Shown here one piece after another: positions 23,647 through 56,922 of a stretch of DNA of 64,000 nucleotides. A model generated the notes under the pieces. That model was not told the DNA's origin, made no database searches, and was given only the letters and a program-made list of their open reading frames with translations. Source of the DNA: a virus. Position numbers and translations under genes: made by a program. Numbering within the stretch: position 1 is the stretch's first letter; every line of letters begins with the position of its first letter. Location: IMG/VR virus record IMGVR_UViG_3300026487_000001; one strand, written 5' to 3'.

Positions 23647-23652
23647 AACAAA

Positions 23653-23676
23653 GGGGTGGCTTCGGCTGCCCCTTTT
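23653..23676 (+). terminator. Intrinsic terminator
   Basis: GGGGTGGC-TTCG-GCTGCCCC (two G.U) + TTTT + GCGTTTCT box. Confidence 0.75.
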
Positions 23677-23698
23677 GCGTTTCTAGTCTCTTATACGA

Positions 23699-23706
23699 TA
23701 ATTTCA
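23699..23706 (+). promoter_or_regulatory. TAATTTCA motif copy (candidate late promoter element)
   Basis: Exact 8-mer in an intergenic gap, 24 nt upstream of the sheath-paralog ATG. Confidence 0.45.
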
Positions 23707-23730
23707 GACAGTCATATAAGGAGACAAATC

Positions 23731-25407
23731 ATGCCCGTTAACTCAACGCATTCCTCTGCTGGTGTTTATACTGGTGTACGGGATCTCTCCGTTGGTGCAA
23801 CGTCTTTATCTACGGCAGTAGTAGGCATTGTTGGTCAGGCTCGTCGCGGCCCTGTAAACCAGCGTGTTGATGTGCGTAATAAAGATGATTTGAAAAACAT
23901 CTTCGGTGCAAAAGATCCCAAGTATGGCCTCGGCCTGTATCTCGCGCTGCCTGTTGCTAAACAGACTAACCAGCTCAAATTCGTCCGTATCACTAAGAAC
24001 GCAAAATACGCGGTCGGTGTGGTTACTGTCGATGACGCGTCTGCTGTTCAGCCTGTAGTGCGTATCACCCCATACACCGATCAAGATGGTAACATCGTCG
24101 GTGTAGATTCTCCTGATCAGCTGGGCTTCCTGCCTACTGACCCGTTGAATGATAACATCATCGGTTACGTTATTCTGGAAAACCCAGGTGACTGGAACAA
24201 CCAGATGGCGTTACAGATTCGTCCGGCCTGTCCTAAGGGTCTCGACCCATTTGACGACCGTAAGTCGTATAACACGAAGCTGTTTTATATCGACGAGTAC
24301 GAGAACTATCAGAACGGCAGCAATCCGGTAAACTCTTACCAGTGCAGCCTGTATGATTATGCGGATGAGTTTGACCGCCAGTATCGTATCGATCACGCGA
24401 TGGAAAACGAAAGCTCCAACTTCCGCTTCGTGCGCAACCCGTACTTCACCACCGATATCGACTTCTTCACCACCGACTTCATCTTCTTCCAGGGCGGTGC
24501 TGACGGTGACACTTGTACTTCTGATGACTTTGCGAAAGCGTATCAGGAATACTTCGGTGACCCGGAAGAAGTTCGTGTGACGCTGCTGATTAGTCCTACT
24601 CAGGATTACATCATCCACCGCGGCATGAAAGCTGCGGCTGCTGCGCACGTTAACTGCTTCGTTATTTGTGGCATCCCGTCGTCCGAGCAGTCTGTGTCTA
24701 AAGCGATTCGTTATCGCCGTCAGACGTTGAACGTCAACGACACCAACATGGCTCTGTATACGCCTGATATCAAAATCTTCGACGAAGACACTGGCCGCTA
24801 TTTGTGGACTGCGTGTGTTGGTCAGATTTGTGCTGTGTTTGCCTACACGGATAACAACCGTGGTAGCTGGTTCGCACCTGCGGGTATCACTGCATCAGGT
24901 CCTCTCGACTTCCATGCTATCGCTCAGAAGTATGATCAGGACGACCGTGATGCAATGACGCGCGAGCAGGTCAACTACATCCGTAAGCTGCCTGATATTA
25001 TGGGCGGTGGCTATGCGGTGTGGGAAGCGAGCACTCAGTACAATCAGAACTCTGCTTTCCAGCAGATTCAGATTCAGCGTATGGTGGGCTACGTGCTTGA
25101 AGTCTGTCAGCGCACTTGCCGCGTTGGCCTGTTTGACCCGAACGATAGCATCCTGCGTGGCTATCTGAAAGGTATTGTCGAGAAGTTCCTCGAAGAAATC
25201 AAGCTGGCACGCGGTCTGCGTAGCGGTAGCTCCGGTTCTCAGGGCTATCAGGTTGTCTGTGACGAGAACAACAACACCAACCAGACTATCGCTAATGGCG
25301 ACCTGATTCTGGATATCGTGTTGGACCCGACGCGTACTACGAAGCGTCTGATCTATCGTTTCAACATCAACCCGACAGGCAGTACCTCCACAACTCTGAG
25401 TCAGTAA
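23731..25407 (+). CDS. Tail sheath-like protein, paralog 1 (outside the tail module)
   Basis: 558 aa from the ATG with TAAGGAG RBS. SSAGVYTGV, SWFAPAGITASGPLDF, YAVWEAST and LDIVLDPTRTTKRLIYRF mirror the motifs of the sheath at 53472. Confidence 0.7.
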   Translation: MPVNSTHSSAGVYTGVRDLSVGATSLSTAVVGIVGQARRGPVNQRVDVRNKDDLKNIFGAKDPKYGLGLYLALPVAKQTNQLKFVRITKNAKYAVGVVTVDDASAVQPVVRITPYTDQDGNIVGVDSPDQLGFLPTDPLNDNIIGYVILENPGDWNNQMALQIRPACPKGLDPFDDRKSYNTKLFYIDEYENYQNGSNPVNSYQCSLYDYADEFDRQYRIDHAMENESSNFRFVRNPYFTTDIDFFTTDFIFFQGGADGDTCTSDDFAKAYQEYFGDPEEVRVTLLISPTQDYIIHRGMKAAAAAHVNCFVICGIPSSEQSVSKAIRYRRQTLNVNDTNMALYTPDIKIFDEDTGRYLWTACVGQICAVFAYTDNNRGSWFAPAGITASGPLDFHAIAQKYDQDDRDAMTREQVNYIRKLPDIMGGGYAVWEASTQYNQNSAFQQIQIQRMVGYVLEVCQRTCRVGLFDPNDSILRGYLKGIVEKFLEEIKLARGLRSGSSGSQGYQVVCDENNNTNQTIANGDLILDIVLDPTRTTKRLIYRFNINPTGSTSTTLSQ

Positions 25408-25413
25408 TCAATG

Positions 25414-25438
25414 AGGAGGGCTTCGGTCCTCCTTTTTT
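25414..25438 (+). terminator. Intrinsic terminator
   Basis: AGGAGGGC-TTCG-GTCCTCCT hairpin + TTTTTT. Confidence 0.75.
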
Positions 25439-25454
25439 CGTATTGTGAGGTTCT

Positions 25455-26150
25455 ATGCTTACTTTGACCATTCAAGGTAACTTGGAATACTGCTTCTCGC
25501 TGCGTAATAAAGAACTGCGATTCTTAGTCGCAATGGATAATCCGCCTTTGCGTGGTACACTCCAGATTGAGAATGCAGCGGGTACAGTGCTCAAGAAACT
25601 TGACCTGCCTACTTCTGGAACGACTGCATATTTCGACTTCACTCTGCCTTTTGATACAGGCGAGCATGACCTTGTGGCTAAGGCGTATAACGTCAGCACC
25701 ACTCTCAATGCTACGTCGAACAAGGTTAGAGTGTCTGTGCCGTTCAGTGGTGAATATGGTCCTCGCTTTGGCATACACGATAAAGTGTTGTCGATTCAAG
25801 ACTACAACGATACCTTCTTCCGTTCTCTGACTACTATTCTCGGTGAATCGAGTCCTCAAACAATCACTTGCCCACCGAATGAATCTACGTCTGATAACAA
25901 CCGCTTCTTCTACGTCGCATGGCCAAAGCGTTTGCTCTATGGATATTTTCAAGAGACCGCGCAGGGATTCTCTGGATCATGGGATGGCGCTATGGAGTTC
26001 AATGACTTCAACTTCCAAGGCGCAGCGGAAGTCAGTCTCGGTGGCTTTGATTATGTTGTCTATCGCAATGACTTCCCGTTCGATAGCCTGGATTATATGT
26101 TCCGTATTAAATACGGTTCTACCAGTCCTAAGTCAGGCGACCCTGTATAA
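25455..26150 (+). CDS. Structural (fiber-associated?) protein. Its C-terminal ~130 aa are shared with the 1336-aa Ig-repeat protein
   Basis: 231 aa. C-terminus FFYVAWPKRLLYGYFQETAQGFSGSWDGAMEFNDFNFQGAAEV..YRNDFPFD is homologous to 31084-31473. Confidence 0.7.
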   Translation: MLTLTIQGNLEYCFSLRNKELRFLVAMDNPPLRGTLQIENAAGTVLKKLDLPTSGTTAYFDFTLPFDTGEHDLVAKAYNVSTTLNATSNKVRVSVPFSGEYGPRFGIHDKVLSIQDYNDTFFRSLTTILGESSPQTITCPPNESTSDNNRFFYVAWPKRLLYGYFQETAQGFSGSWDGAMEFNDFNFQGAAEVSLGGFDYVVYRNDFPFDSLDYMFRIKYGSTSPKSGDPV

Positions 26151-26184: not shown

Positions 26185-26823
26185 ATGGAACTGAAACTTG
26201 AACAGTTCATCAGTAACGTTGAGTTGCTTACGAATATCCACCAGCAGAACAAAAACCCAATCATGTTCCGTCTGCCTAAAGATGGTTCGCAGTTAGGTCT
26301 GTTGTTCTACTGCTCGTATGCAGTTCCACGTTATGTAGTCCTTCCGATCAATGCGATCTGGATTGACTACGACCCTGAGTCGCCTACTTTCCGCACTGCG
26401 TTTAAGCGCACAACGAAAGACCTGGCTGACCCGTACAAAGATGTTTGGACTGCGCTGTACTTCTATGACGATGCCATGGGAGACCAGACGTATGACCCAA
26501 ACGATCTGAAAATCATCAACCAGACTCTGCCTCCGCTTGCTACTTCGATTACTCGTGGTATCGGCTATCTGTCGTACCCAGAGGCTGAGTCGCGCGTTGT
26601 GCTTGAGGGTGATGAAACGTTGTCTAACAATCGTGACCCGAAAGACCACACGCACCCTGAGAAGCCTGCTACTATGATCTCTATCAACGGTAGCTACGGT
26701 GAAGAACATGTGCCTATCAAAGACCAGCTGGTTCCTGCTGTGAATCAGGTTATGGTGCTTGAAGACAATACGCTTCAATGGCGTAAGGTGCGTGAATCTG
26801 AACTCGGCCAACCTACTGACTAA
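26185..26823 (+). CDS. Fiber-like protein, member 1 of a three-member N-domain family
   Basis: 212 aa. VLPINAIWIDYD... and GIGYLSYPEAES...NNRDPKDHTHPEKP are shared with 26834 and the N-terminus of 27463. Confidence 0.7.
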   Translation: MELKLEQFISNVELLTNIHQQNKNPIMFRLPKDGSQLGLLFYCSYAVPRYVVLPINAIWIDYDPESPTFRTAFKRTTKDLADPYKDVWTALYFYDDAMGDQTYDPNDLKIINQTLPPLATSITRGIGYLSYPEAESRVVLEGDETLSNNRDPKDHTHPEKPATMISINGSYGEEHVPIKDQLVPAVNQVMVLEDNTLQWRKVRESELGQPTD

Positions 26824-26833
26824 CGGAGCGGTT

Positions 26834-27466
26834 ATGACTACACTGAATGAAATCGCTGCTGCTCTGTTGGCTGTTACGGGCTTTATGGATGATACGTCGA
26901 AAGACCAAATCGTTCGTCAGATTAACCCGACACTCAACATCAGTTGTACGTTCATCACCGCCTCAGCCGAGCCTGTTGGTGTTGTGTTGCCGATGAACGT
27001 TGTGTGGCTTTGCATGGATGTGAACAGCGCGTTCTATCGCAAGTTCCTTGCACGTAAATCCAAAGAGCCTGCTGGTGGCTACAAAAATACGTGGGAAGAA
27101 GTGAAGAACTTCAACTCTCTGTGGGCTCCGCAGTATTATGATCCTGCTGACATTAGTGGTGGTAGCGATATTCCTAACGCGTCTGTTGACGAATACGGTA
27201 TTGCTCGCCTGACCACTGAGCCTGCTACTGTCGGTCGTCCTACGTTCGTGTCTGTCTCTGACCCACGTAACACCGATAAGCGCACACCACTGCCTCACGA
27301 TGAAATGCACGCCGAGAAGCCTCTGGTCGAAGTGAAGACCGTGCAGGACAAAGTGAACATGGACGCAGACGTAGGCGACAATGGTTCTACCTTCATCGCT
27401 GATACGTCCGTGAAAGCATCATACGGCCATCTGATTGCGACCGACATTCTGGAGAATAATGAATGA
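26834..27466 (+). CDS. Fiber-like protein, member 2 of the N-domain family
   Basis: ATG at 26834 with GGAG RBS. VLPMNVVWLCMD..., YGIARLTTEPAT...SDPRNTDKRTPLPHDEMHAEKP. Confidence 0.7.
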   Translation: MTTLNEIAAALLAVTGFMDDTSKDQIVRQINPTLNISCTFITASAEPVGVVLPMNVVWLCMDVNSAFYRKFLARKSKEPAGGYKNTWEEVKNFNSLWAPQYYDPADISGGSDIPNASVDEYGIARLTTEPATVGRPTFVSVSDPRNTDKRTPLPHDEMHAEKPLVEVKTVQDKVNMDADVGDNGSTFIADTSVKASYGHLIATDILENNE

Positions 27467-30400
27467 GCGTAACCACGATCGACGGCTTTGCTAAACAGTA
27501 TATCGCTCTGGCTCGTACTCGCGGTCTGACGCCACGTAACCCAATCACTTTCTTGTTCCGTCCTAACGCGAACGATCAAACGGAAGTGCATCAGGTTGTT
27601 GTGTCTCTGACTGAGCCATCGTTTTCTGAGAAGCCGTACAACCTGATTTGGATTGACGCGAACACTGGTAGCCCTCAGTACCAGTATGTGCTGCGTCGTA
27701 CCTCTGCTGTATCTGACGGCAATCACCGTGGCTCATGGGTAACCGTGACTGACTACGCGCAGTTGTTTGCTCAGAAACAGTTCTTCCGTTTCGTTGTGGA
27801 GAATGCTGCTGATCTGGGTATCGAAGTAGGTGATCTGGAAATCGCACATGCGACCACCAGCCGTCTGGGTAGTGTTGTCACTAAGACTGACCCGACTGAC
27901 CCTGATATGCCTATCGCTGTGTCAAGCTCTGACCCACGTATGGCTGATGCGCGTTATCCAACTAATCACGATCATCCTGATTATGCGCGTACCATGATTC
28001 GCCTGAACTCCACAGCATTCGTTGAAGTCGCAAGCTCTAACGAACCGCAGCCTGGGTATGTTCTGGCGATTGTCGATCAGGACCCTGTTAACCCGAACAA
28101 GTATATCGGTAAGTGGGTCAAGCCCAACGCCGATAACGTCGAGTGGGAATCACCTCACTTGATTAACTTGCGTATCAGCCTGCCGGGCAACGCGAGCTAC
28201 ATGTCGGATAACAGTAGCGTCAAGCTGAACATCGACGCAGAATGGTCTAACAGCATCGAACACAACCCTACTGGCGTTGAGTGGTCCATTGAAGAGAACG
28301 TTATCGGTGTGACTATCGACCAAGGCGGTACTGTGTCTGCGCCTGACCTAGCTGCTGACGTTGTGCTGAAAGTCACTGCACGTAAGCGCGACCCTGTGTA
28401 TGGCAACTGGGTAACTGCTACCTACGACCTGCTGATCAAGAACGCATTCATCCCTGACGACGAGCTGGTATCTATCTCTATTGTTGGTGCGGACACGCTG
28501 TTCTATAAGCAGAAAGAGACCTATACCGTGACTGCTCGCTACAAGTCCGGTAACGTCGCAACTATCATGCCGTCGAACTTCACGGTGGATAACGCGAACG
28601 CTCTGTCTCTCGTCGGCCTGCAGGGTACTGCGAAGAAAGTCTCTACTGATACAGTTGTCAAACTGACTGCTACTTATCAGTATAACGGCCTGACCTTTAG
28701 CGCGACGAAGAACGTCACCGTTAAGGCTCAGTTGATCACGCTGCTCGAAGTGCTGGGTTCTTCCACCATTGCTTCTCAGCAAAGTGAAGCCTACACGTTT
28801 AAGATTACGTGGTCGAATGGCGACACTGAAATGATTACGCCGAACTCTTTCGTTGCTGCACCTACCACTTACACCACCATCAGTGGCAACGTGGTGACTG
28901 CGAAGAAAGAGACAACGCAGGACCGCAGCATCGTCCTGACTGCGACGTACATCACGGCAGATCAGACCGTCACTGGTAACAAGAACGTTACTATCCTGAA
29001 AGAGACTGCTGCGGTAACGCTGACCTCTCTTGCTATTCAGGGTGCGAACACTATCCGCAGTGAAGAGAGCGCGAACTATACGTTCCTCGCTACGTACTCT
29101 GACGGCCACACCAAGCTGGTTGACCCGACTACGTTTACGGCTGACCGACTGGATATTGTTACTATCGTGAACAAGACCGTCAACGCAGGCAAAGTGTCTT
29201 CTGACATTCCTGTGAAGCTGTCTGCAACGTACACGGAGAACGGTATCACGAAGACCGCAACGCTCGATATTACAATCGTGAATGTTGTACCTGTCGTTGA
29301 CCTGTCGAGCATTAAGATCGTCGGCCCGTCGTCTGTTCAAGAGAAGACAACCACTCCGTATACAGTGCTGGCTACTTACTCTGACGGACACACCGCAACG
29401 ATCAGCCCTAACGAGTTCCGTTTGCAGCAGGCTTCGAACTACGCAACGTTTGATAAGTCTGAACTGATTGTTGGCGCTGTTCCTATCGCTAACACCAGCG
29501 TAACGTTGTACGCTTCGTACACTGAGAACGGCATCACGAAGACTGCCACCCTGCCTGTGTCCATCGTTGGTAACCCACCGACTGTGACCTCTCTGGAGAT
29601 TCGCGGTAACGATTCGATGAACGAGAACACTACTGCGCAATACACCGCGTGGGAAATTCTCTCTGATGGTACTGACCGTCAGGTAGCTTCACCGACGTGG
29701 TCTGTGATTCAGGGTAGTGCAGTCGCAAGCATCGCACAAACTGGTGTGCTGTCTGCTGGTGAAGTGACTCAGGACACAACTGTTCTGATTCGTGCAACCT
29801 ACGACGGACGTAACGCCCAGAAGTCCGTGCTGGTTAAGAACATCATCGTTATCAGCCTGCTGTCTGTTCAGCCGCAAGCGCCATCGCCTGTGTATGACTT
29901 CGGTACTGCTGTCGGTGTGACTCGCGACCTGCATAGCGTTCTGACGTTCTCTGACTCTACTACTCGTGAGGGTACTAGCGGCGAACTGTCTTACACGCTG
30001 TCCACCGCGGCTCAAGAATACTTTGAGATCGTTGCTGGTGGAACAACTGGCTGGCGCATTCGCACCAAGAAAGCACTGAGCGGCTTCTACGGCACTCTGA
30101 CTTTCCAGCTCAACGTAGCTGCGACTGTTGGTACTGTATCGAAGACCGGTAACGTGCAGTTCACCGTTGTTGGACCAACCGATGACGTGTCGAAAGTGGA
30201 AATCATCGGTGATGACTCTATCACTGAGGGCACTGTATCTGGTGATTACTTCGTGCGTGTTACTCGCCTGTCGGGTGCAACAAACGAGTACGCCTCACTG
30301 CCAACGTGGTCACTGCCTCAGGGCGCTGCGTATGCAACTATGTCTGTCGGTTCTACTTCAACTCGCGTGAAGCTGACCGTACCTGCTAACTCGATTAGCC

Positions 30401-31473
30401 AGAACCAGACTGCTACGCTCCGTGCTGCTGCCGTTACCGTTGATGGTAAGACCTACGCTCCTGAAAAAGTGATTACGCTTATCAATCAGGCTGCAACGAT
30501 CACTAAGCGCGAGCTGATTGGTCCTGCCGCTGTGAACAAAGGTGAGACTGGTACCTACATTCTCCGCCTGACGTTCTCTGATAGTACCACTGTCGACCTG
30601 ACGCCTGTTATCACACGTAGCTCTGGTTCTACTACAGCGTTCACGTACCCAGGCAATAACACCATCATCGGTAACACGGTAAGCACCGTGCAGAGCGCAA
30701 TCATCACTGGTACTGCTTCGTACAACAGCCAATCGCAAACTGCGAACCTGACTGTAACGAACACGCCAGCGCCTGCGACTCCTGACTCTGTGACCATCAC
30801 TGGTCCTTCGTCAATCATCGGTGGTGTGACTACCGCGTACACTGCGACTGCTACGCTGTCTGACGGCACTACGCCTGACGTGACTGCTGATAGTGGCACA
30901 ACGTGGGCGGTGGCTGTGAAGTCCGGCACCGCAACTGGCCTGAGCGTTACTGGCGGTTCGTTGAAGTCTAACGCTGTGACTGCTGATGCTGTGGTGACTA
31001 TCACCGTTACTTACGTTAAGAACGGTAAGACAGTTACTGCAACCAAAGACGTTACGCTCAAACCGCAACAGTCTTCCGACTTGGGTGCTCGCTTCGGCTC
31101 TCACTCTAAGATCAAATCTGTAGCTGGCTATGATGCTGCGTTCGTACAGGGCCTGCAAACCGCGCTGACTACGACTGGACAACAGCTCCTGAACTGTCCT
31201 GCAAACACCAGTACCTCAACGAACAACGTGTTCTTCTACGTTGCGTGGCCGAAGTCTCTCGGCTACGGTTACTTCGTTGAGTCAGTACAGGGCTTTGCTG
31301 GTTCATGGGATGGTGCGTTGGAGTTTGATGACTTCAACTTTGCTGGTCCTGCCGAGGTGACTATCAACGGTGTTGATTACGTTATCTATCGTAACGACTT
31401 CCCGTTCGATAATCTGGCGTATACGTTTAAACTGACCTACGGTTCATCGAACCCAGGTTCTGGTATCGCGTAA
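27463..31473 (+). CDS. Large fiber/decoration protein: family N-domain + ~10 bacterial Ig-like (BIG2-type) repeats + shared C-terminal domain
   Basis: 1336 aa. N-terminus NLIWIDANTGSP..., SRLGSVVTKTDP...SSDPRMADARYPTNHDHPDY. Repeated ~90-aa units (...VTARYKSGNV..., ...LATYSDGHT...). C-terminus homologous to 25758-26150. Confidence 0.8.
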   Translation: MSVTTIDGFAKQYIALARTRGLTPRNPITFLFRPNANDQTEVHQVVVSLTEPSFSEKPYNLIWIDANTGSPQYQYVLRRTSAVSDGNHRGSWVTVTDYAQLFAQKQFFRFVVENAADLGIEVGDLEIAHATTSRLGSVVTKTDPTDPDMPIAVSSSDPRMADARYPTNHDHPDYARTMIRLNSTAFVEVASSNEPQPGYVLAIVDQDPVNPNKYIGKWVKPNADNVEWESPHLINLRISLPGNASYMSDNSSVKLNIDAEWSNSIEHNPTGVEWSIEENVIGVTIDQGGTVSAPDLAADVVLKVTARKRDPVYGNWVTATYDLLIKNAFIPDDELVSISIVGADTLFYKQKETYTVTARYKSGNVATIMPSNFTVDNANALSLVGLQGTAKKVSTDTVVKLTATYQYNGLTFSATKNVTVKAQLITLLEVLGSSTIASQQSEAYTFKITWSNGDTEMITPNSFVAAPTTYTTISGNVVTAKKETTQDRSIVLTATYITADQTVTGNKNVTILKETAAVTLTSLAIQGANTIRSEESANYTFLATYSDGHTKLVDPTTFTADRLDIVTIVNKTVNAGKVSSDIPVKLSATYTENGITKTATLDITIVNVVPVVDLSSIKIVGPSSVQEKTTTPYTVLATYSDGHTATISPNEFRLQQASNYATFDKSELIVGAVPIANTSVTLYASYTENGITKTATLPVSIVGNPPTVTSLEIRGNDSMNENTTAQYTAWEILSDGTDRQVASPTWSVIQGSAVASIAQTGVLSAGEVTQDTTVLIRATYDGRNAQKSVLVKNIIVISLLSVQPQAPSPVYDFGTAVGVTRDLHSVLTFSDSTTREGTSGELSYTLSTAAQEYFEIVAGGTTGWRIRTKKALSGFYGTLTFQLNVAATVGTVSKTGNVQFTVVGPTDDVSKVEIIGDDSITEGTVSGDYFVRVTRLSGATNEYASLPTWSLPQGAAYATMSVGSTSTRVKLTVPANSISQNQTATLRAAAVTVDGKTYAPEKVITLINQAATITKRELIGPAAVNKGETGTYILRLTFSDSTTVDLTPVITRSSGSTTAFTYPGNNTIIGNTVSTVQSAIITGTASYNSQSQTANLTVTNTPAPATPDSVTITGPSSIIGGVTTAYTATATLSDGTTPDVTADSGTTWAVAVKSGTATGLSVTGGSLKSNAVTADAVVTITVTYVKNGKTVTATKDVTLKPQQSSDLGARFGSHSKIKSVAGYDAAFVQGLQTALTTTGQQLLNCPANTSTSTNNVFFYVAWPKSLGYGYFVESVQGFAGSWDGALEFDDFNFAGPAEVTINGVDYVIYRNDFPFDNLAYTFKLTYGSSNPGSGIA
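28458..31065 (+). repeat. Tandem array of Ig-like domain coding repeats (about 270 nt each, diverged)
   Basis: Recurrent pattern V.I.G...v.e....Y...a.ysdG....v.p......n...a.i...G.v.a. The closest pair is ~29221-29280 vs ~29518-29577 (YTENGITKTATL in both). Confidence 0.7.
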
Positions 31474-31483
31474 GGAGAATAGG

Positions 31484-32269
31484 ATGCCGGTTAACATGAC
31501 TTCGTTCCTGTTGCCAGCATCCGCAGCACTCCCATACCTCCTTGAGGATAAATATCTTCGAGGGGGTATGCGCTGTCTGCCTACGCTCAATGATCGTGAT
31601 ACAATGTCTGTCGGCAATAAAAAGCCTGGGATGTTGTGCTACGTCACTGAGACCAAGACGATGTATCAGCTTGGTGCAGATAACGTAACGTGGGAAGAAG
31701 CGAAATTCGGTGGCTCTGAATATAAGTTCGAGTCGCCGTTCGTGACTGCTGTGGATGAAACAGGTCTGACAATTGTAGGCCTCGACCCTAGTAAGCAAGT
31801 GCCTGAACCTCAGTATGCGGGTATGACCCTCATGTCTGGTGCTAACGGTACGATGTTCTGGGTTGATATGAGTGGTAATGAACAGGCTGGTGTGCGTAAG
31901 ACTGTAGAGTACGAAGCCGCCAACTATATCACTCCTGGCCAACAGCTTGATTTCGATCTGGCAATGAATAAAACGGTTATGCTCCTTTCTGTTAAACTCA
32001 ATGCCTTTGATGTGGAACTTACCGCATATCAAAGTTCACTGAGAGACGACAGAAACCCGTATATATTCCGTTCCTCTGCTAATTTTCTCGAAGATGATGG
32101 TGTGTTTGCGGATGAAGATAGCGAAGGCAATCCAATCATTCGTAAGCTGCGTCGATACTCCTTCCTGTCTAACAAAGACAATACGCCTACGATTTCGTGG
32201 CGCATGAAGAACATCGGCACATCACCGTCGAAACCGAAACTCACTGTAACCTATCTGGTAATGGAGTGA
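31484..32269 (+). CDS. Structural protein, unknown function
   Basis: 261-aa ORF, TAAGGAG RBS. Confidence 0.7.
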   Translation: MPVNMTSFLLPASAALPYLLEDKYLRGGMRCLPTLNDRDTMSVGNKKPGMLCYVTETKTMYQLGADNVTWEEAKFGGSEYKFESPFVTAVDETGLTIVGLDPSKQVPEPQYAGMTLMSGANGTMFWVDMSGNEQAGVRKTVEYEAANYITPGQQLDFDLAMNKTVMLLSVKLNAFDVELTAYQSSLRDDRNPYIFRSSANFLEDDGVFADEDSEGNPIIRKLRRYSFLSNKDNTPTISWRMKNIGTSPSKPKLTVTYLVME

Positions 32270-32276
32270 TAACCGT

Positions 32277-33263
32277 ATGGCTATTCAACGTGTAACTGCT
32301 ACTAAGCTCGTGGGTCTGGAAGCTCTGACTCGCGATCTGGTTAGCAAAATGATTACGGCCGGCTTCACGCTGATTGCTGTTGACGGCAAGACCGGAAGCA
32401 CCGTAACACCGACCGCTAAGTCTTTCTATCTGGAAGCATCCGATGCGGTTGACCCCCTGTATGACACTCAGAAGTGGGGCATTATCCTCGCTGCTGACAA
32501 CACAGGTAAAACCCTGTCGATCAACGTCTTGCCTGACAATCAGGTAAATCAGACTGACTTCACTGCCGCTAAACGTTCTGCAACTGTAGAAGTTGGCCGT
32601 ATGTCCAAGTCTGGTCTGGCTACGAACTTCTTCATCGATCTGGTCAACGACTGGAAGATGGACACGACCGCTGACCTGTCTGCATACCCGCTGACGTATG
32701 ACTTCATCACTACCGACCACGGTATTGCTCTGCATATCAACGCAGAAGGCTTCGACAACACCGGTACTGCATTTAGCTGGTTTGTTGTTCAGCGTGGCGT
32801 ACAGGCTAGCGACACTACGCCTGGCGATCACAGCCCGCTGTTCGCCATCTTCTCCTGCGGCGGCGGACTTGGTGGTGACCCTGATACCATCAAGCCAGAA
32901 GCTATTCAGCGTTACACTGTAATCGAAGAGGGTATTTACTCTGCTACGGTTCCACTGTCTGCTGTTCAGCCTACGCCTGACTCTGCTCCTATCATCAACC
33001 CGCTCCAGCAGGTTATGATCGCAGAAGGCAACCGTGCTATCGTTCTGTTCCCGCAGATGATCAACACTCAGCGCTATGTGTACTTCGCTACACTGGACAT
33101 GCTGGGTTATACGTCTGCTGACGTTCTCTCCGCTGGTTCCGAAGTGCAGTTGAACCCTCTGAAAGCAACGAACAAAACCAAATACCTGGGCATGAACGCT
33201 AACGGTAAAGACAACCGTGGTATGCGTCTGATGCTTCCTATCGGCCTGGGCGACGCGGCTTAA
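32277..33263 (+). CDS. Structural protein, paralog A of a pair
   Basis: 328 aa. Shares TDHGIALHINAEGFD / QRYVYFATLDMLGYTSADVLS blocks with 33282. Confidence 0.7.
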   Translation: MAIQRVTATKLVGLEALTRDLVSKMITAGFTLIAVDGKTGSTVTPTAKSFYLEASDAVDPLYDTQKWGIILAADNTGKTLSINVLPDNQVNQTDFTAAKRSATVEVGRMSKSGLATNFFIDLVNDWKMDTTADLSAYPLTYDFITTDHGIALHINAEGFDNTGTAFSWFVVQRGVQASDTTPGDHSPLFAIFSCGGGLGGDPDTIKPEAIQRYTVIEEGIYSATVPLSAVQPTPDSAPIINPLQQVMIAEGNRAIVLFPQMINTQRYVYFATLDMLGYTSADVLSAGSEVQLNPLKATNKTKYLGMNANGKDNRGMRLMLPIGLGDAA

Positions 33264-33281: not shown

Positions 33282-34463
33282 ATGAACAAACTGATCGTGA
33301 AATCTGGCTTCACCAGCAACCTGAAAATGTGGAAATCAATCCTGCAGGATTTGGTTGATAACGGCTTCAAGCTGGTGAGTGTCAACGGCACTATTTCTTC
33401 AACTATCCCTTCGACTGACCTCCAGTCGTTTGTTGTTGAAGCGACTAACACCATCGACCCGATCGCTGGTACTGGTGCAGGCCAACAGCGCTGGCGTCTG
33501 GCGATGAAAGGCTCAGAGAAGCGTACTCAGCTTTTCTGTGCTGCGCCTGAGCAGATCTCTGACACGGGCACCATCTCTAAGACTGGTGCCGTGAACGTTG
33601 GTGGTACTACCATCAACGAATACGCTGGCCAGATTGGTGGGCGTTCTACCAGCAGCCAGTTCAACGCCAGTTCTGGTGACAACGAAGTGTACTTCTGGCA
33701 TCGCGGTATCGCCAACCAGGGTAACACCACGTTCTACGCAGGCACCATGGCATATCCGCCTGCTACTACTCAGCCTACTGGCCAGACCAGCTCTGATAGC
33801 CTTGTGTTCGCTGACCCGGAAGCTACTCCGTTCACGTACCACATCGCTCTGTCTGATCACGGCGTTGCGATTCACATTCAGATTGAAGGTCGTGACTCTG
33901 ATGGCTGCCGCGGCGCGTGGCTGGTAATTCAACGTGCTATCAACTCTGATGGTACTGTGGTTGTCGATGGTAAAGCTCCTCTGTTCTGCATGTTCTCTGT
34001 GAACGGCGGTGGCTCCATGAACAACAACGACGAAGTGCGTCCTGTCCCGGGCAGCCCTGGCTCGTACCAGATCATGCGCTATACCGTGCGTGAGTCTGAT
34101 GTGAACGCACCGACTCTGCCGGCACCTGCGCATGTCCACAGCGCGGATAGCTCTGCTGTGCTGAACCCGTATCAGATGGTTCCGTTCTCCGAAGATAACC
34201 ACTTCGACTTCCGTCTGCCTGCTGGCTTCAACACTCAGCGCTATAGCTATCCGTACGAAATGGATATGGTTGGTTATGCGTCTGCTGACGTTATCTCCAA
34301 CGGTACTCTGATCGACGTTCAGGTCTATAACGAGACCGAAGACGACGGCAGCACTGCGAAGAAGCGTACCTACAAAGCTCTGACTGCTAACAGTCCGAAC
34401 AACACCGGTATGCGTATCTTCTTCCTGCAAGGCTATAAAGCCCCAGAAGGCGCCGGAGCCTAA
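33282..34463 (+). CDS. Structural protein, paralog B of a pair
   Basis: 393 aa. SDHGVAIHIQIEGRD / QRYSYPYEMDMVGYASADVIS. Strong codon bias, followed by a terminator. Confidence 0.7.
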   Translation: MNKLIVKSGFTSNLKMWKSILQDLVDNGFKLVSVNGTISSTIPSTDLQSFVVEATNTIDPIAGTGAGQQRWRLAMKGSEKRTQLFCAAPEQISDTGTISKTGAVNVGGTTINEYAGQIGGRSTSSQFNASSGDNEVYFWHRGIANQGNTTFYAGTMAYPPATTQPTGQTSSDSLVFADPEATPFTYHIALSDHGVAIHIQIEGRDSDGCRGAWLVIQRAINSDGTVVVDGKAPLFCMFSVNGGGSMNNNDEVRPVPGSPGSYQIMRYTVRESDVNAPTLPAPAHVHSADSSAVLNPYQMVPFSEDNHFDFRLPAGFNTQRYSYPYEMDMVGYASADVISNGTLIDVQVYNETEDDGSTAKKRTYKALTANSPNNTGMRIFFLQGYKAPEGAGA

Positions 34464-38717: not shown

Positions 38718-40607
38718 ATGGTACTTTCCGTATCTGCATCTTATCAGGATGCCGTGTCGAAGTACGCGTGGATGAAGTATACAGGTCCTCGTGGAAAAGA
38801 AGTCGCACAACGAACGCATAAGCGCATGATTCGTGAAGGCGATATATTCGGCATCCTTCCGCTGAGAAATGGCGGACGCTACACTCTCATTTTCCCAGAT
38901 ATGCCGCACGTTGACTTCCCGCTCGATAAAGCAACTGGCCTGTTCCTGATGGAACGCGCATCTAAACTGCGTAAAGTGCCAGACGTTGTTAATCGTGATG
39001 GCAAGCGCACCAAGACTGCTGGTGCACAGACGCTACAGCGTCAGTTGATGCGCTCTCAGTTTGATGCCGCACGTTTCAGCCCGCGTAAGGTCAAGTCAGA
39101 AGCTGTTTACGGCATCGACTTTGACAACTACCAGTGGCGCATGGTCGCAAGTCCTGAATACCCTGTGAAGACTTCTAAGGGTATCACCAAGCTGTACAAG
39201 AACGATATGATTGGTGTTCGTTTCTTGCGTCAGGGTAAAGGCGGCATCGTCATTAACTCTGAGGGCATGTTCCTGAAAGTTGACGACGCGCAATACGACC
39301 TGTTGATTCATGACACCAATATTCTTCCTATGAATGACTGGCCGAAAGGCACTGTTGACGTAGATACGATTAAGGCTTATCGTCGTGTTGTGCGTCGTGC
39401 TCGTCGTCGTTCTCAGGAAGAGCAGGAAGAAGCAACACGCTTGGCCAACAACGCAAAAGTTCTGGAGCAGAAGCAACAACGCAAAGAACTCCAGAAAGAA
39501 GCGCGTAAGAAAGCCTTAGAGCGTTCTGCTGAAATGCGTGACCTGCGTAACAAGGTTAAGTCAGGTGAGATCGAAGCACCTAAAGCCGAAGTGCGTACTG
39601 TCTACGAAGATGGTATCGACCGTCGCGGTAAGCGTATTCGTGTGGTTGAAGAAGAAATTCTGGATGACGAGATCGAAGAAGTAGGTATCGATCTTGATCT
39701 TGACGAGCAGAAGCTGGAAGATATTCTGTCTCGCAGTCCATTCGCTGGCGATGCGTTCAACATCGAAGATTCTGTAGGCTCACTGTTTGGTGGTGATGAC
39801 TCAGAAGACCACGAAGAACCTTCTCTCGACCTGTCTGATATTGACGAACCGGAAGAAGATGAGGAAGATACACCTCCGCCTAAGGTTCGTGCTAAAGGCA
39901 AGAAAGCTGCGCCTGCTCCGGCCGAAGAAGAGGATGAGGAAGAAGAACCTTCAGAAGATGAAGACACTTCCGAAGATGGCGGCGAAGAAGAGGAAGACAC
40001 CGATGTGGAAGAAGACTCTGACGATAGCGATACAGACGATTCTGATGAGGGAGATGACTCCGACGACGAATCCGTGGATGATGACGATGCCGACGACGGA
40101 GGAGCTGATTCAGAAGGTGAAGATGACGCAGAAGGTGACGACAGCGACGAAGATACCTCCGATGCCGAGGATGATGCAGACGCATCTGATGCAGTAGACG
40201 AAACTTCCGCTGACGAAGACACGGACTCTGATGTTGCTGCCGCCGAGCAGGAATCGAAAGAGACAGCGAAGAAAATCGCTGCTGCCAACAAATCTACTCC
40301 AAGCGCTCGCGCAGAAGAGGCAGAAGAAGGCGACGTGCTCCAGTTCCGCGCTGACGCTAAGTTGAAACGTGATTGGGTTGTGCTGCGTGTTAGCACTCAC
40401 TCCAAGTCCGACAACATCGTTATCTATACGCTGTACGATATTACCAACAGTCCTGATGAAGTGCGTCAGGTACGTGTTAACCGTGCACGTAAACAGAACC
40501 TCTTTGACTATGCAGAACATGTGAAGGATATGGCGCCTAAGCTGTTCAATCGTGTGCTCGACATGGCCGAAGATTATCCCGTCAACAAAGACCCAATCGC
40601 CAGCTAG
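38718..40607 (+). CDS. Hyperacidic protein with two N-terminal copies of a recurrent small domain
   Basis: ATG at 38718 (the GTG at 38691 is also possible). K/R/E-rich helical stretch, then a ~200-aa D/E/S tract (~39648-40250), then a C-terminal domain. Confidence 0.75.
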   Translation: MVLSVSASYQDAVSKYAWMKYTGPRGKEVAQRTHKRMIREGDIFGILPLRNGGRYTLIFPDMPHVDFPLDKATGLFLMERASKLRKVPDVVNRDGKRTKTAGAQTLQRQLMRSQFDAARFSPRKVKSEAVYGIDFDNYQWRMVASPEYPVKTSKGITKLYKNDMIGVRFLRQGKGGIVINSEGMFLKVDDAQYDLLIHDTNILPMNDWPKGTVDVDTIKAYRRVVRRARRRSQEEQEEATRLANNAKVLEQKQQRKELQKEARKKALERSAEMRDLRNKVKSGEIEAPKAEVRTVYEDGIDRRGKRIRVVEEEILDDEIEEVGIDLDLDEQKLEDILSRSPFAGDAFNIEDSVGSLFGGDDSEDHEEPSLDLSDIDEPEEDEEDTPPPKVRAKGKKAAPAPAEEEDEEEEPSEDEDTSEDGGEEEEDTDVEEDSDDSDTDDSDEGDDSDDESVDDDDADDGGADSEGEDDAEGDDSDEDTSDAEDDADASDAVDETSADEDTDSDVAAAEQESKETAKKIAAANKSTPSARAEEAEEGDVLQFRADAKLKRDWVVLRVSTHSKSDNIVIYTLYDITNSPDEVRQVRVNRARKQNLFDYAEHVKDMAPKLFNRVLDMAEDYPVNKDPIAS

Positions 40608-53423: not shown

Positions 53424-53431
53424 TAATTTCA
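53424..53431 (+). promoter_or_regulatory. TAATTTCA motif copy
   Basis: Intergenic, 40 nt upstream of the sheath ATG. Confidence 0.45.
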
Positions 53432-53471: not shown

Positions 53472-55157
53472 ATGTTACAACCTAATCACCCCTCTCCGGG
53501 GGTCTATTCGCAGGAGAATGATCGCAGCAACCAAGCGTCACTTGTGCAGTACGGCATGTGTACTCTGGTTCTGCCATTCCCTCGCGGACCTGTGGGTGTT
53601 AACACAACTGTTACCTCTAAGGATGAGATCGACGCAATTTTTGGTCCAGCAACGGGGCAGTACGCTAACAACGTCCAGAACGCAAAACTTCTGATGACGA
53701 AAGCAACCAAGCTGAACATTACGCGTGTCGCTCTCTCCGTGAAATACGCAGGTGTGTATATCACAACTTATAACAACTTCGCCACCTGCCGCCCTCTGGG
53801 TGACGCTGGACTTGTAGACCCTGAGCAGATTGCCTTCTCTGATCGTGATATTTGTTTGGTCTATGCAATGTCTCAGTACGCAGCGGCGAACGATATGTAC
53901 ATCACGTTTGAACCTGACGTGACTGATGCGCTGGGCATTAAGTCCATCATCAAAGTGTACCGTATCGGTTATCTGACTCCTCTTGAGTCTCATACCGTGA
54001 CTACGCGCTACTACAAAGACGAAGCGGGCAATCAGTTCTTCCTCGAAGACGTGATCAACGTTAACTCCAAGTACATCCGCGTTAAGCTGAACGAAAACCA
54101 CTATAAGCTGCTGGAAGACCCGAACTATGTGGTTATCAACTCCATCGGCGGTGGCCCGGCTGACCCAACGAACCCGACTGCTCCTAATGGTCAGTTCACT
54201 GGCGGTAGCGACGGCGCTGTTATCGACGTAGATCATTCTGATGCGACTATCGCTAACCAGAGTCTGTCTGCTGTGTTGACTGCGTGGGATAACTACCGAG
54301 ACTGGGAAGACGTTCAGGCAGGCATTCTGTGTGCTGGTGGCCTTGAGCATCCTGTGATTGCGAACAAGATCGATGAACTGGCTGAGAGCCGCATGGACTG
54401 TATCGCTACTCACGGCGTCCCTGTCAGCCTGCAAGCGCGTGACAATGCTGTGGCGTATCGCCGTGGCAACAAACCGTATCAGCAAGCAGAGTTCTCCATC
54501 ATTGGTTCTTGGTCGGCTATCTCGAATGCTGACGTTAAGGCCCGTGACAACGACAATGCGCGTGACTACTACGTGCCTGCATCTGTCTGTATGGCATACT
54601 GCATGTTGACTGCCGACCAAGTAGCATCGTGGTTAGCACCAGGCGGTCTGAATCGTGGTAAGCTGGACTTCGCTACTGACGTGCGCTATCGCTTTAAACA
54701 AGGCGACCGCGACGTTCTGGTAGACAACCAGATTAACCCGATTGCTGTATTCGACGGCGAAGGCATCTTCATGTGGGGTGCTGATACAACGTACACCACT
54801 AAGAGCCCGCTGCAGGATATCGGTATTCGTCGCCTGTTGGCAATGCTTCATGCTTCTGCTCGTGCAAACAACCTGAGTGCCGTGTTCGAACCGAACGATG
54901 ACATTCTGAAACAGCGCCAGAAGTCTGCGATGGAAGCAATCCTCGAACCGATTAAGACCGGTCGTGGTTTGCGTTGGTATGCAGTCCAGTGTGACTACAA
55001 GAACAACACCGCAGAAGACGAAGCGCGTGGCGATCTGATCATCGACGTGTTCCTTGACCCGACTCGCTACACTAAACGCATTCACGTAACTGCTATCGTA
55101 CCGCCTGTCGGTGATATTCAGTACGCGCTGCAACTGATTAACTCTGGTGCACTCTAA
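53472..55157 (+). CDS. Tail sheath protein (paralog 2, in the canonical position upstream of tube)
   Basis: 561 aa. PSPGVYSQE, SWLAPGGLNRGKLDF, GIFMWGADTT, IDVFLDPTRYTKRIHVTAIV. Followed by the tube gene. Confidence 0.85.
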   Translation: MLQPNHPSPGVYSQENDRSNQASLVQYGMCTLVLPFPRGPVGVNTTVTSKDEIDAIFGPATGQYANNVQNAKLLMTKATKLNITRVALSVKYAGVYITTYNNFATCRPLGDAGLVDPEQIAFSDRDICLVYAMSQYAAANDMYITFEPDVTDALGIKSIIKVYRIGYLTPLESHTVTTRYYKDEAGNQFFLEDVINVNSKYIRVKLNENHYKLLEDPNYVVINSIGGGPADPTNPTAPNGQFTGGSDGAVIDVDHSDATIANQSLSAVLTAWDNYRDWEDVQAGILCAGGLEHPVIANKIDELAESRMDCIATHGVPVSLQARDNAVAYRRGNKPYQQAEFSIIGSWSAISNADVKARDNDNARDYYVPASVCMAYCMLTADQVASWLAPGGLNRGKLDFATDVRYRFKQGDRDVLVDNQINPIAVFDGEGIFMWGADTTYTTKSPLQDIGIRRLLAMLHASARANNLSAVFEPNDDILKQRQKSAMEAILEPIKTGRGLRWYAVQCDYKNNTAEDEARGDLIIDVFLDPTRYTKRIHVTAIVPPVGDIQYALQLINSGAL

Positions 55158-55168
55158 GGAGCTTTTAG

Positions 55169-55681
55169 ATGCCAAAGGTAACTCTTGACGAATTTGCGTC
55201 TACGAAAGATCCGTTACTCGATGACAACTTCGAGTTCCTGATCCCTAACCCGCCTGTCGGTGGTACGGACTATGCGCGTACTCTGCGTCTGTTCTGTAAG
55301 ACTGGCGTTAAGCCTGGTTCAACGCTCGAAGAAGTTCTGAAAGAAGCGTTCGGCCACCAGCTTAACTACGCTGGCCGTAAGATCTTCTCTCACGCTCTGT
55401 CCACTGAGTACAACGAAAACTCAGAGATGGCCGTGTACAAACAACTGGAAGAGTGGCACCAGTTTGTGCGTAACACTCAAACCCAGCTGGGCGCACGTAA
55501 GGCAGACTACGCAACGAAAGGAATCTTCCGTATCTTCGATATGGACGGTTCTGTAGTTGCTGAGTACAACATCTACGGTGTGTGGCCGAAACAGGTTCCT
55601 GATTTGCAGTTCTCTGGTGCTGCACAGGCTGTTCCGGTATCAATCGAATGGTCCTTCGACTACGCCGAACTCGCATCGTAA
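55169..55681 (+). CDS. Tail tube protein (T4 gp19-like family)
   Basis: 170 aa. FEFLIPNPP..., ..YNIYGVWPKQVPDLQFS...VSIEWSFDY is typical of contractile-tail tube proteins. Followed by a terminator. Confidence 0.7.
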   Translation: MPKVTLDEFASTKDPLLDDNFEFLIPNPPVGGTDYARTLRLFCKTGVKPGSTLEEVLKEAFGHQLNYAGRKIFSHALSTEYNENSEMAVYKQLEEWHQFVRNTQTQLGARKADYATKGIFRIFDMDGSVVAEYNIYGVWPKQVPDLQFSGAAQAVPVSIEWSFDYAELAS

Positions 55682-55690
55682 GAAACACAA

Positions 55691-55717
55691 GGGCCAAGAT
55701 TCGTTCTGGCCCTTTTT
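55691..55717 (+). terminator. Intrinsic terminator
   Basis: GGGCCA(A)GA...TCTGGCCC hairpin + TTTTT. Confidence 0.7.
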
Positions 55718-55732
55718 CGTTTTGGAGAGACT

Positions 55733-56409: not shown

Positions 56410-56922
56410 ATGCCGCTGCCGACGCTTGATGACCTGAATGATTCTTCTGCTCCTGGCCTTGACGATCCCTTCATGCAAGACAAGTGGCGTGTGCGAGAAT
56501 TTCCTGTTATTGGTAATATATCGTTAAGCCCGTTCGCGTGTGAAGAAGTAGACTTGCCATTCTCCGTCTATCAATCGAAATCAAAAGAAGTGGCCACGGT
56601 GCAAATCAACTGGCCACATGGTTCGAGCGTTGACGGATTCAGTCTGCTATTTGGTATCGACCAGAAGCTCGCAGTGATGAAATATTTCAATGCGTGGCAG
56701 AGTCTGATTCAGAATCCGTACACGGGTGGCTTCCGTCTGCCGTCTGTGTATAAGAAAAACCTTATCATTGAGCTATACGACAACCAAGGGCAAATGGTTG
56801 GCGAACAACAGCTACGCAACTGCTGGCCTATCGGTGGTCAAAGCATTCAGCTTAACGGCACCGGCGGTAGAGGCATGTGGTCTGTGCAAATGGCTCTTGA
56901 TGTTTCCCGACCAATGATGTGA
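56410..56922 (+). CDS. Tube-like paralog (tube initiator/terminator candidate)
   Basis: 170 aa. ..LRNCWPIGGQSIQLNGTGGRGMWSVQMALDV parallels the C-terminal block of 55169. Confidence 0.5.
   Translation: MPLPTLDDLNDSSAPGLDDPFMQDKWRVREFPVIGNISLSPFACEEVDLPFSVYQSKSKEVATVQINWPHGSSVDGFSLLFGIDQKLAVMKYFNAWQSLIQNPYTGGFRLPSVYKKNLIIELYDNQGQMVGEQQLRNCWPIGGQSIQLNGTGGRGMWSVQMALDVSRPMM

Follow-up and report, generated by a model that had tools for sequence, protein, structure and literature searches.

A second tail-sheath gene beside the fibre genes of an Alexandravirus-type phage, the ortholog of PaBG gp213

The virus record IMGVR_UViG_3300026487_000001 of IMG/VR, whose whole analysed stretch of 64,000 nucleotides (nt) is called the window below, encodes two full-length tail-sheath proteins on the plus strand: sheath A (23731-25407, 558 amino acids (aa), with the ATG at 23731 and the stop codon at 25405-25407) and sheath B (53472-55157, 561 aa). 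Sheath B is the canonical, tube-linked tail sheath and the ortholog of gp76 of Pseudomonas phage PaBG, and sheath A is, by reciprocal best hit and synteny, the Alexandravirus ortholog of PaBG gp213. With a probability of about 0.6, sheath A is read here as the gp213-type second subunit of a two-component sheath, a late protein that would co-polymerise with sheath B around one tube and hold, through its outer domains, fibres that carry a common anchor domain. The two-sheath arrangement of the group containing PaBG, Lu11, Y3, and AD1 is already known; new here is the pairing of A-type sheaths with fibre-anchor genes and of B-type sheaths with tube genes across IMG/VR loci, which points to sheath A as the putative fibre-bearing subunit of a mixed sheath.

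The original prediction that 23731-25407 encodes a second sheath paralog was confirmed by an end-to-end BLASTP alignment of A with B (26% identity, 151 bits, E = 8e-44), by full-length matches of both proteins to PHROG 23, "tail sheath" (E = 2e-67 over residues 5-553 of A; E = 2e-61 for B), and by the AlphaFold2/Foldseek sheath fold described below. Sheath chains in the PDB were matched by the sequence of A with E values of 1e-19 to 1e-14, and sheath B also matched solved sheath proteins. Pfam PF04984 scored 31.0 bits on sheath A, just below the cut-off of 31.4 bits, and both PF04984 and PF17482 were present in its close orthologs. Every hallmark motif that had been quoted for the two products was found in each of them: SAGVY (A) and SPGVY (B) near the N terminus, GSWFAPAGITASGPLDF (A) and ASWLAPGGLNRGKLDF (B), VWEAST (A) and MWGADT (B), and, near the C terminus, IVLDPTRTTKRLI (A) and VFLDPTRYTKRIH (B). 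Sheath A is a complete sheath protein of the T4 gp18 type, sharing with B the N-terminal SxGVY segment and the C-terminal LDPTRxTKR strand. The 28-kb separation from the sheath-tube pair was likewise correct (28.1 kb from the A stop to the B start), as was the statement that no tube gene follows A; the tube gene (55169-55681, PHROG 45) sits after B. A BLASTP comparison of A, B, and three PaBG "tail sheath" proteins with all window open reading frames (ORFs) of at least 80 aa revealed no third sheath paralog, only A and B being matched.

AlphaFold2 models, for which the input was a 120-sequence alignment, had a predicted local distance difference test score (pLDDT) of 87.5 and a predicted template-modelling score (pTM) of 0.81 for A and corresponding values of 86.9 and 0.82 for B. 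The same structures headed the Foldseek results for both models, namely, T4 gp18, the Klebsiella phage KP1 sheath, a haloarchaeal contractile injection system sheath, and P1 gp22. T4 gp18 was the best PDB match of each (E values of 1e-31 to 1e-35 at 17 to 18% sequence identity), with a template-modelling (TM) score of 0.71 for A (9mkb, E = 2e-31) and 0.72 for B; A matched P1 gp22 with a TM score of 0.70 to 0.71, and the query-normalised TM scores across T4 gp18, the KP1 sheath, and P1 gp22 ranged from 0.63 to 0.73. Comparison with gp18-type sheaths, which had been suggested as a check on the prediction, therefore came out in its favour, with A adopting the sheath fold. In both models the N-terminal segment with the near-invariant SxGVY was predicted to be disordered (in A, residues 1-14 had a pLDDT of <50). 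The C-terminal strands were conserved in A and B, with agreement between the A and B clades peaking in the C-terminal block, and within-clade conservation was similar for the two. Between the window and AD1, the ratio of nonsynonymous to synonymous substitution rates (dN/dS) was lowest for B (0.038), followed by A (0.053), the tube (0.068), and the major capsid protein (0.109). Sheath A is thus under strong purifying selection and is as constrained as core virion genes.

These results bear on a quite improbable alternative, in which sheath A does not surround a tube at all and acts as a scaffold or adaptor elsewhere, for example, at the baseplate periphery or the collar, where it would hold the gp214- and gp215-like fibres. 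The missing tube partner, the strong divergence of A from B, at 26% identity, and the conserved pairing of A with fibre-anchor genes would all suit such a role. An entire sheath fold, with inner domains and putative lattice-forming terminal segments kept under strong purifying selection, would not; in addition, the PaBG paralogs have been published as sheath components and, by the account of a citing paper, form polysheaths.

At the nucleotide level, the window was 98.9% identical to Erwinia phage phB78 and approximately 89% identical to Dickeya phage vB_DsoM_AD1 (AD1), two 262-kb jumbo myophages of the genus Alexandravirus whose records both already label the gene "putative tail sheath protein." The window itself comes from an Erwinia jumbo myophage of this genus. 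Reciprocal best hits paired A with PaBG gp213 (37% identity, 338 bits, versus 259 bits with gp76) and B with PaBG gp76 (33% identity, 279 bits, versus 179 bits with gp213). The window, PaBG, and Lu11 had a gene order in common, running from DNA polymerase through sheath A, a gp214-like gene, the long fibre (gp215-like), NAD ligase, and a glycosyltransferase to the head protease, and two tube-like genes followed sheath B in both the window and PaBG. In a neighbour-joining tree of IMG/VR and reference sheaths (200 bootstraps), the A clade was recovered with 86% support and the B clade with 90%, and the duplication is therefore older than the divergence of the Pseudomonas branch from the enterobacterial branch. 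The tube-linked sheath gene was thus copied, giving rise to sheath A, before the Pseudomonas phages (PaBG and Lu11) separated from the enterobacterial ones (Alexandravirus, Yoloswag, and JA), and the duplicate later moved to its place beside the fibre gene cluster. In a midpoint-rooted neighbour-joining tree of database homologs, PaBG gp76 fell closer to the A side. The fast evolution of the enterobacterial B clade is held responsible for this position, as a long-branch effect, given that the A/B orthology is supported alike by reciprocal best hits, by synteny, and by the bootstrapped tree.

The original prediction had also held that no annotation scheme accounts for the gene. This was mistaken, since two sheaths are a published hallmark of both the lineage and the genus (PMC6143709, PMC7412058, and PMC9686651). 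Phage AD1, the JA phages, Y3, Lu11, and PaBG have been placed in one "hairy Myoviridae" lineage in which every member but phiRSL1 has two sheath proteins (Day et al. 2018, PMC6143709); the two sheath proteins have been described as a distinguishing trait of the group and attributed to gene duplication (Evseev et al. 2020, PMC7412058); and twin sheath genes have been given as a trait of the genus Alexandravirus (PMC9686651). A review of sheath evolution reports two sheath copies in some phage genomes and, citing Evseev et al. 2020, an origin by duplication in several jumbo phages (PMC9230969). Among only 14 Coomassie-detectable proteins of the PaBG virion were gp213 and gp76 (both "tail sheath protein"), gp214, and gp215 ("long tail fibre") (PMC7412058, Table 1), and the PaBG sheath proteins form polysheaths according to a paper that cites Kurochkina 2018 (PMC6357053). 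Absence from virions had been named as grounds for rejecting the prediction; the Coomassie-visible gp213 indicates the opposite, as evidence from the ortholog only. The gene can be annotated with confidence as a PaBG gp213-type second sheath subunit.

The distribution of neighbouring genes separated the two sheath types. IMG/VR was scanned with the sheath alignment, and the 80 loci returned were classified by best hit. Tube genes followed the B-type sheath in all 42 loci with at least 1.5 kb of downstream DNA, and none of these 42 had, after B, a gene for the "dock" domain, as the fibre-anchor domain of gp214-like proteins is called in this report. Clear A-type contexts, which ranged from 97% down to 33% identity to A, numbered 20; one to three dock genes were located within approximately 2 kb in 19 of them, a dock gene lay at +5.5 kb in the twentieth (locus L024), and a tube gene was present in none. 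The dock domain was detected in 65 phage records, comprising Erwinia, Dickeya, Pseudomonas, Yersinia, and Salmonella phages and phage NCTB plus one Alcaligenes match with 13% coverage, and in a sheath search of phage records the sheath-matching places exceeded the records by 65, a number equal to that of the dock-domain records. Because of the 19 A contexts with dock genes and this equality of counts, the combination of sheath A with fibre-anchor genes is as fixed a gene pair as that of sheath B with the tube. The paralog does co-occur with the downstream fibre genes, a point on which the original prediction had called for comparative genomics. Three roles had been proposed, those of an outer or decorating sheath layer, a scaffold for sheath-attached fibres, and a component of a separate contractile or anchoring structure. 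Of these, the second agrees most closely with the conserved A/fibre-anchor pairing, and a separate contractile structure is disfavoured by the fact that A has no tube of its own.

The same distribution makes it very improbable that A and B are redundant alternatives, either of which could build the sheath, with the duplicate kept for dosage or for host- or condition-specific use. Both proteins are full length and have similar expression signals, and recombinant PaBG sheath proteins are reported, in the citing literature, to form polysheaths, all of which speaks for redundancy. On the other side, both copies have been retained as clades of their own across Pseudomonas and enterobacterial phages, each has a fixed and separate gene neighbourhood, and selection is strong on both even though only 26 to 40% identity remains between them. 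The separate clades, the fixed neighbourhoods, and selection in spite of divergence together argue for distinct, nonredundant roles.

Signals on the plus strand flanked sheath A on both sides. An intrinsic-terminator-like hairpin with a T-run (GGGGUGGC-UUCG-GCUGCCCC, 23650-23684; hairpin at 23650-23675, -18.3 kcal/mol, z = -3.2) marked the end of the upstream DHH phosphoesterase gene and was identical in phB78 and AD1. Next came the promoter-like motif TAATTTCA (23699-23706), which lies 24 nt from the sheath A ATG, exactly as first reported, and an AAGGAG ribosome-binding site (23718-23723, read from sequence). A second terminator-like hairpin with a T-run (GAGGAGGGC-UUCG-GUCCUCCUU, 25413-25441; hairpin at 25413-25434, -14.8 kcal/mol, z = -3.5) followed the gene. 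Sheath B carried the same TAATTTCA motif 40 nt before its start (53424-53431, plus strand), and the sheath B-tube unit was closed by a terminator-like hairpin with a T-run (55689-55725, plus strand; centroid -14.7 kcal/mol, z = -2.1) that was weaker than both sheath-A hairpins.

The motif TAATTTCA occurred six times in the window, each time on the plus strand, against 1.7 copies expected, and six copies were reached in 0 of 100 shuffles. Four of the six were intergenic and lay 24 to 41 nt upstream of start codons, at 23699 (sheath A), 38679 (a 638-aa protein), 47872 (a gene at approximately 47921), and 53424 (sheath B); the remaining copies, at 47163 and 49309, were inside genes. Looser copies of the form TAATTT[ACT][ACT] were located ahead of ORF 19795 and of the gene for a 212-aa protein (26148), and one (49959) lay just within the listed ORF preceding the capsid gene. 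The TAATTT core was also present ahead of sheath A in AD1, PaBG (CTAATTTAC), and Lu11 (GTAATTTAA) and ahead of sheath B in PaBG (CTAATTTCT). This pattern fits a candidate late promoter of the TAATTTCA/TAATTT type that PaBG and Lu11 would share with the rest of the lineage; the sigma factor annotated among the phage genes of PaBG may take part in its recognition. The 638-aa protein (38718-40607), which has its own TAATTTCA motif and belongs to the structural gene block, carries a Pfam KMPT-N domain (KTSC and metallopeptidase N-terminal fusion domain, E = 2e-18) and is homologous to the PaBG gene immediately before NAD ligase.

Sheath A had been described as an insulated monocistronic unit. Hairpins with T-runs do flank the gene; the word "monocistronic," by contrast, had been deduced from those hairpins, and only 47 nt without a promoter-like motif separate the sheath A stop from the next ATG, 14 nt past the hairpin. 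Insulation also failed as a general property. The hairpin after sheath A was absent in PaBG, Lu11, and JA11-type loci: the gp214 gene of PaBG begins 11 nt past the annotated end of sheath A and the homologous Lu11 gene 4 nt past it, with no terminator in either, and in JA11-like and other metagenomic relatives (L018-L023 and L076) the next ORF opens 4 to 12 nt past sheath A, again with no terminator. Because the next window gene starts 14 nt later without a motif of its own, the hairpin is probably a partial terminator, and its most likely effect is to lower read-through into the fibre genes and to tune the sheath-to-fibre transcript ratio rather than to isolate the gene.

Taken together, fold, gene order, and expression signals suggest the following model. 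Sheath A would be expressed late and abundantly, driven by the kind of TAATTT promoter-like element that also precedes B; A and B would co-polymerise around a single tube to give one contractile sheath; and the diverged outer domains of A would provide the attachment sites for fibres with the common N-terminal anchor domain (the 212-, 210-, and 1336-aa proteins), the hairpin after A adjusting the ratio of sheath to fibre transcripts. The A-borne fibres would then explain why the tails of Y3, AD1, the JA phages, and Lu11 are reported to be fibre decorated ("hairy"), and, if A is indeed the fibre dock, the lineage would owe its hair-like tail decoration, in structural terms, to the second sheath gene. 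A more specific version, offered tentatively, is that A and B form an ordered heteropolymer, for example, of alternating rings or strands, in which A would supply periodic docking sites for fibres with the gp214-like domain as the basis of the hairy tails, and that the duplication was fixed for spacing bulky fibres along a contracting lattice. The A-dock gene pairing thus suggests, in testable form, what the duplicate is retained for and where the tail "hairs" attach.

Fibre attachment could also be arranged in another way, considered unlikely here, with sheath A as a minor, position-specific protein limited to a single ring or a few rings where the B sheath meets the baseplate or the neck, in the manner of Afp3/Afp4 and Pvc3/Pvc4, and with the fibres attached at that end. 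Sheaths of several paralogs, with adaptor rings at the end, are well known from the antifeeding prophage (AFP) and the Photorhabdus virulence cassette (PVC), AFP and PVC proteins were among the PDB matches, the PaBG micrographs report appendages at the tail end only, and A adjoins fibre genes rather than the tube. Against such a minor role, the PaBG ortholog gp213 was Coomassie visible alongside gp76 (PMC7412058, Table 1), and A has the promoter-like motif of B, a strong ribosome-binding site, and a terminator, as expected for a major structural gene. Moreover, A keeps both terminal segments and the length of B, whereas the minor AFP and PVC paralogs differ in size and are encoded beside the main subunit, and its TM score was 0.71 with T4 gp18, compared with approximately 0.40 to 0.43 for Afp3, Pvc3, and Pvc4. 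Four observations make all three rivals to the two-component sheath less likely: the PaBG ortholog is abundant, A bears the signals of a major gene, its putative lattice-forming segments are retained, and A and B have long been conserved separately.

Several observations weigh against the two-component, fibre-bearing sheath. The co-occurrence of A with dock genes is confined to one phage lineage and is therefore confounded by shared descent. The tree gave no supported position to a third metagenomic lineage (L024 and L028). One IMG/VR contig of this lineage, 3300025288_000012 (190.9 kb), from a distant jumbo phage, contained both a dock-linked (L024) and a tube-linked (L049) sheath; the dock-linked sheath was about equally similar to the tube-linked type of its own lineage (54%) and to PaBG gp213 (51%), and its competing tree positions had bootstrap values of 36% versus 26%; a second independent duplication, or gene conversion between paralogs, is possible in the L024/L028 lineage. 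As to the tails, PaBG possesses sheath A, gp214, and gp215, yet its published description is that of a typical A1 myovirus bearing small appendages where the tail ends, not that of a hairy phage. For CBB, a hairy phage of the Rak2-like group, only one gp18 homolog is listed, which means that a second sheath is not a requirement for hairs in all lineages. A study by Kurochkina et al. (2018, Virology 515:46) reportedly describes a "two-component tail sheath" for PaBG; it entered this analysis through its title and through citing papers. There was no solved structure of a lineage member, the nearest PDB entries being 18 to 19% identical by Foldseek, and the literature search found no cryo-electron microscopy study or stoichiometry of a two-sheath phage. 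No proteome of an Alexandravirus turned up in the literature searched either.

The fibre gene block that follows sheath A on the plus strand begins with a 231-aa protein (25455-26150; PHROG 36080 and 14098), whose C-terminal 131 aa are 58% identical to the C terminus of a 1336-aa fibre encoded downstream. It lacks the N-terminal anchor domain of that fibre and, by its sequence, looks like a spare or exchangeable fibre-tip module. After the 231-aa protein come a 212-aa PaBG gp214-like protein (26185-26823; 32% identity to PaBG gp214, E = 3e-30), a second gp214-like protein of 210 aa (26834-27466), the 1336-aa long fibre itself (27463-31473; PHROG 14098, "tail protein"; 29% identity over 814 aa to the PaBG gp215 "long tail fibre"), and a 261-aa protein (31484-32269) with 29% identity (E = 5e-27) to the PaBG "endosialidase chaperone" that follows the PaBG long fibre. 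To return to the 231-aa protein at the head of the block: Its gene occupies a gap of approximately 0.7 to 0.8 kb between sheath A and the anchor genes. Loci L009-L017 and L027, of the Alexandravirus, Y3, and Yoloswag-like kinds, have this gap, and JA11-like loci, PaBG, and Lu11 lack it.

The dock domain is common to three consecutive genes, making up the 212- and 210-aa proteins and the first approximately 200 aa of the 1336-aa fibre (27463-28080), and is homologous to PaBG gp214 and to the N terminus of PaBG gp215. Its conserved motif reads DPRLSDAR-x-P-x2-H-x-H-P-E and extends to DPRLSDAR..P..H.HPE.PAT; in some trimeric phage fibres, HxH motifs serve as metal ion ligands. No relative of the dock domain was found in Pfam or the PDB. 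The possibility that it is a disguised tube, such that A and the dock proteins would be a second sheath-tube pair, was rejected at an hhalign probability of 0.14%. The original description of A as heading a block of fibre-like and immunoglobulin (Ig)-repeat proteins is borne out for the fibres and found no support for the repeats: Pfam gave no domain, Ig-like included, in the 1336-aa protein and only a weak, subthreshold Plug match in a 1378-aa protein of the block, and BLASTP self-comparison gave no internal repeats in either. The 1336-aa protein also had no sequence match in the PDB. The lineage includes biocontrol candidates for fire blight and soft rot, and its host-contact fibre proteins are therefore of some applied interest.

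Beside sheath B on the plus strand, the tail tube gene (55169-55681, 170 aa, PHROG 45) starts 11 nt after the sheath and encodes a product with 41% identity to PaBG gp75. A second tube-like paralog (56410-56922), a homolog of PaBG gp74 (32% identity, E = 3e-19), lies 0.7 kb after the main tube and may be a tube initiator or terminator; the sheath B module therefore also carries a duplicated tube fold. Adjacency to a tube gene is the usual order for the sheath family rather than a strict requirement of it, and sheath A, whose downstream neighbours are fibre related, departs from that order.

Other genes in the lineage also bear the label "tail sheath." In AD1, HOU09_gp126 (L008, 1404-1697), downstream of a VgrG-like gene, encodes only 97 aa, too small for a sheath subunit, and its label is doubtful. 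In PaBG, O152_gp093 (L003, 18241-19866; 541 aa) is a "tail sheath" in RefSeq, yet by BLAST it resembled neither gp76 nor gp213, and the window has no homolog of it; by mass, it is probably the virion protein listed by Evseev et al. as gp94, "tail assembly protein." In the window, the 328-aa (32277-33263) and 393-aa (33282-34463) proteins are paralogs of each other (29% identity by BLASTP) to which RefSeq and PHROG 12249 attach the same label. These two showed no relation to sheath proteins, with an hhalign probability of 0.15% against the sheath alignment and no sequence match in the PDB; the label is treated as unsupported and looks like a propagating annotation error.

PaBG is among the closest known systems. 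Like the window, it has two full-length sheath paralogs (gp213 and gp76), with gp214- and gp215-like genes in the A neighbourhood between DNA polymerase and ligase, two tube genes with B, and a TAATTT-like motif upstream of both sheath genes. The window differs in that its paralogs are further diverged (26% identity versus 39% in PaBG), an extra 231-aa gene and a terminator lie between A and the dock genes, two gp214-like genes are present instead of one, and three extra genes (328, 393, and 1378 aa) are included in the block. The same genes in the same positions were found in Alexandravirus, Yoloswagvirus, and Salmondvirus (Y3, Alexandra, AD1, Yoloswag, and JA11/13/29) and in Lu11, with A at 66 to 97% identity across IMG/VR loci L009-L020 and L027; sheath A and the dock gene are directly adjacent, without a terminator, in Lu11 and the JA11-type phages, and otherwise nothing essential differs.

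More distant parallels are provided by extracellular contractile injection systems (eCIS), in which Afp2/3/4 and Pvc2/3/4 likewise represent several sheath-fold paralogs per contractile particle and are detectable homologs (E values of 1e-9 to 1e-4). The eCIS paralogs are encoded by adjacent genes and differ in size, and the minor ones form only baseplate-proximal rings. The window paralogs, in contrast, are equal in size, lie 28 kb apart, have major-gene signals on both copies, and are both closer to T4 gp18; sheath A thus shares neither the adjacency nor the size difference of the eCIS terminal adaptors, in a comparison of gene position, length, and structural match. In the type VI secretion system, TssB and TssC (VipA/VipB) are two pieces that jointly form one sheath protomer, so that two gene products are likewise involved, but A and B each model as a complete protomer. 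T4 has a single sheath gene, located beside its tube gene, and phage contractile sheaths are normally homopolymers; a contracting lattice of two full-length paralogs would be structurally unusual among them.

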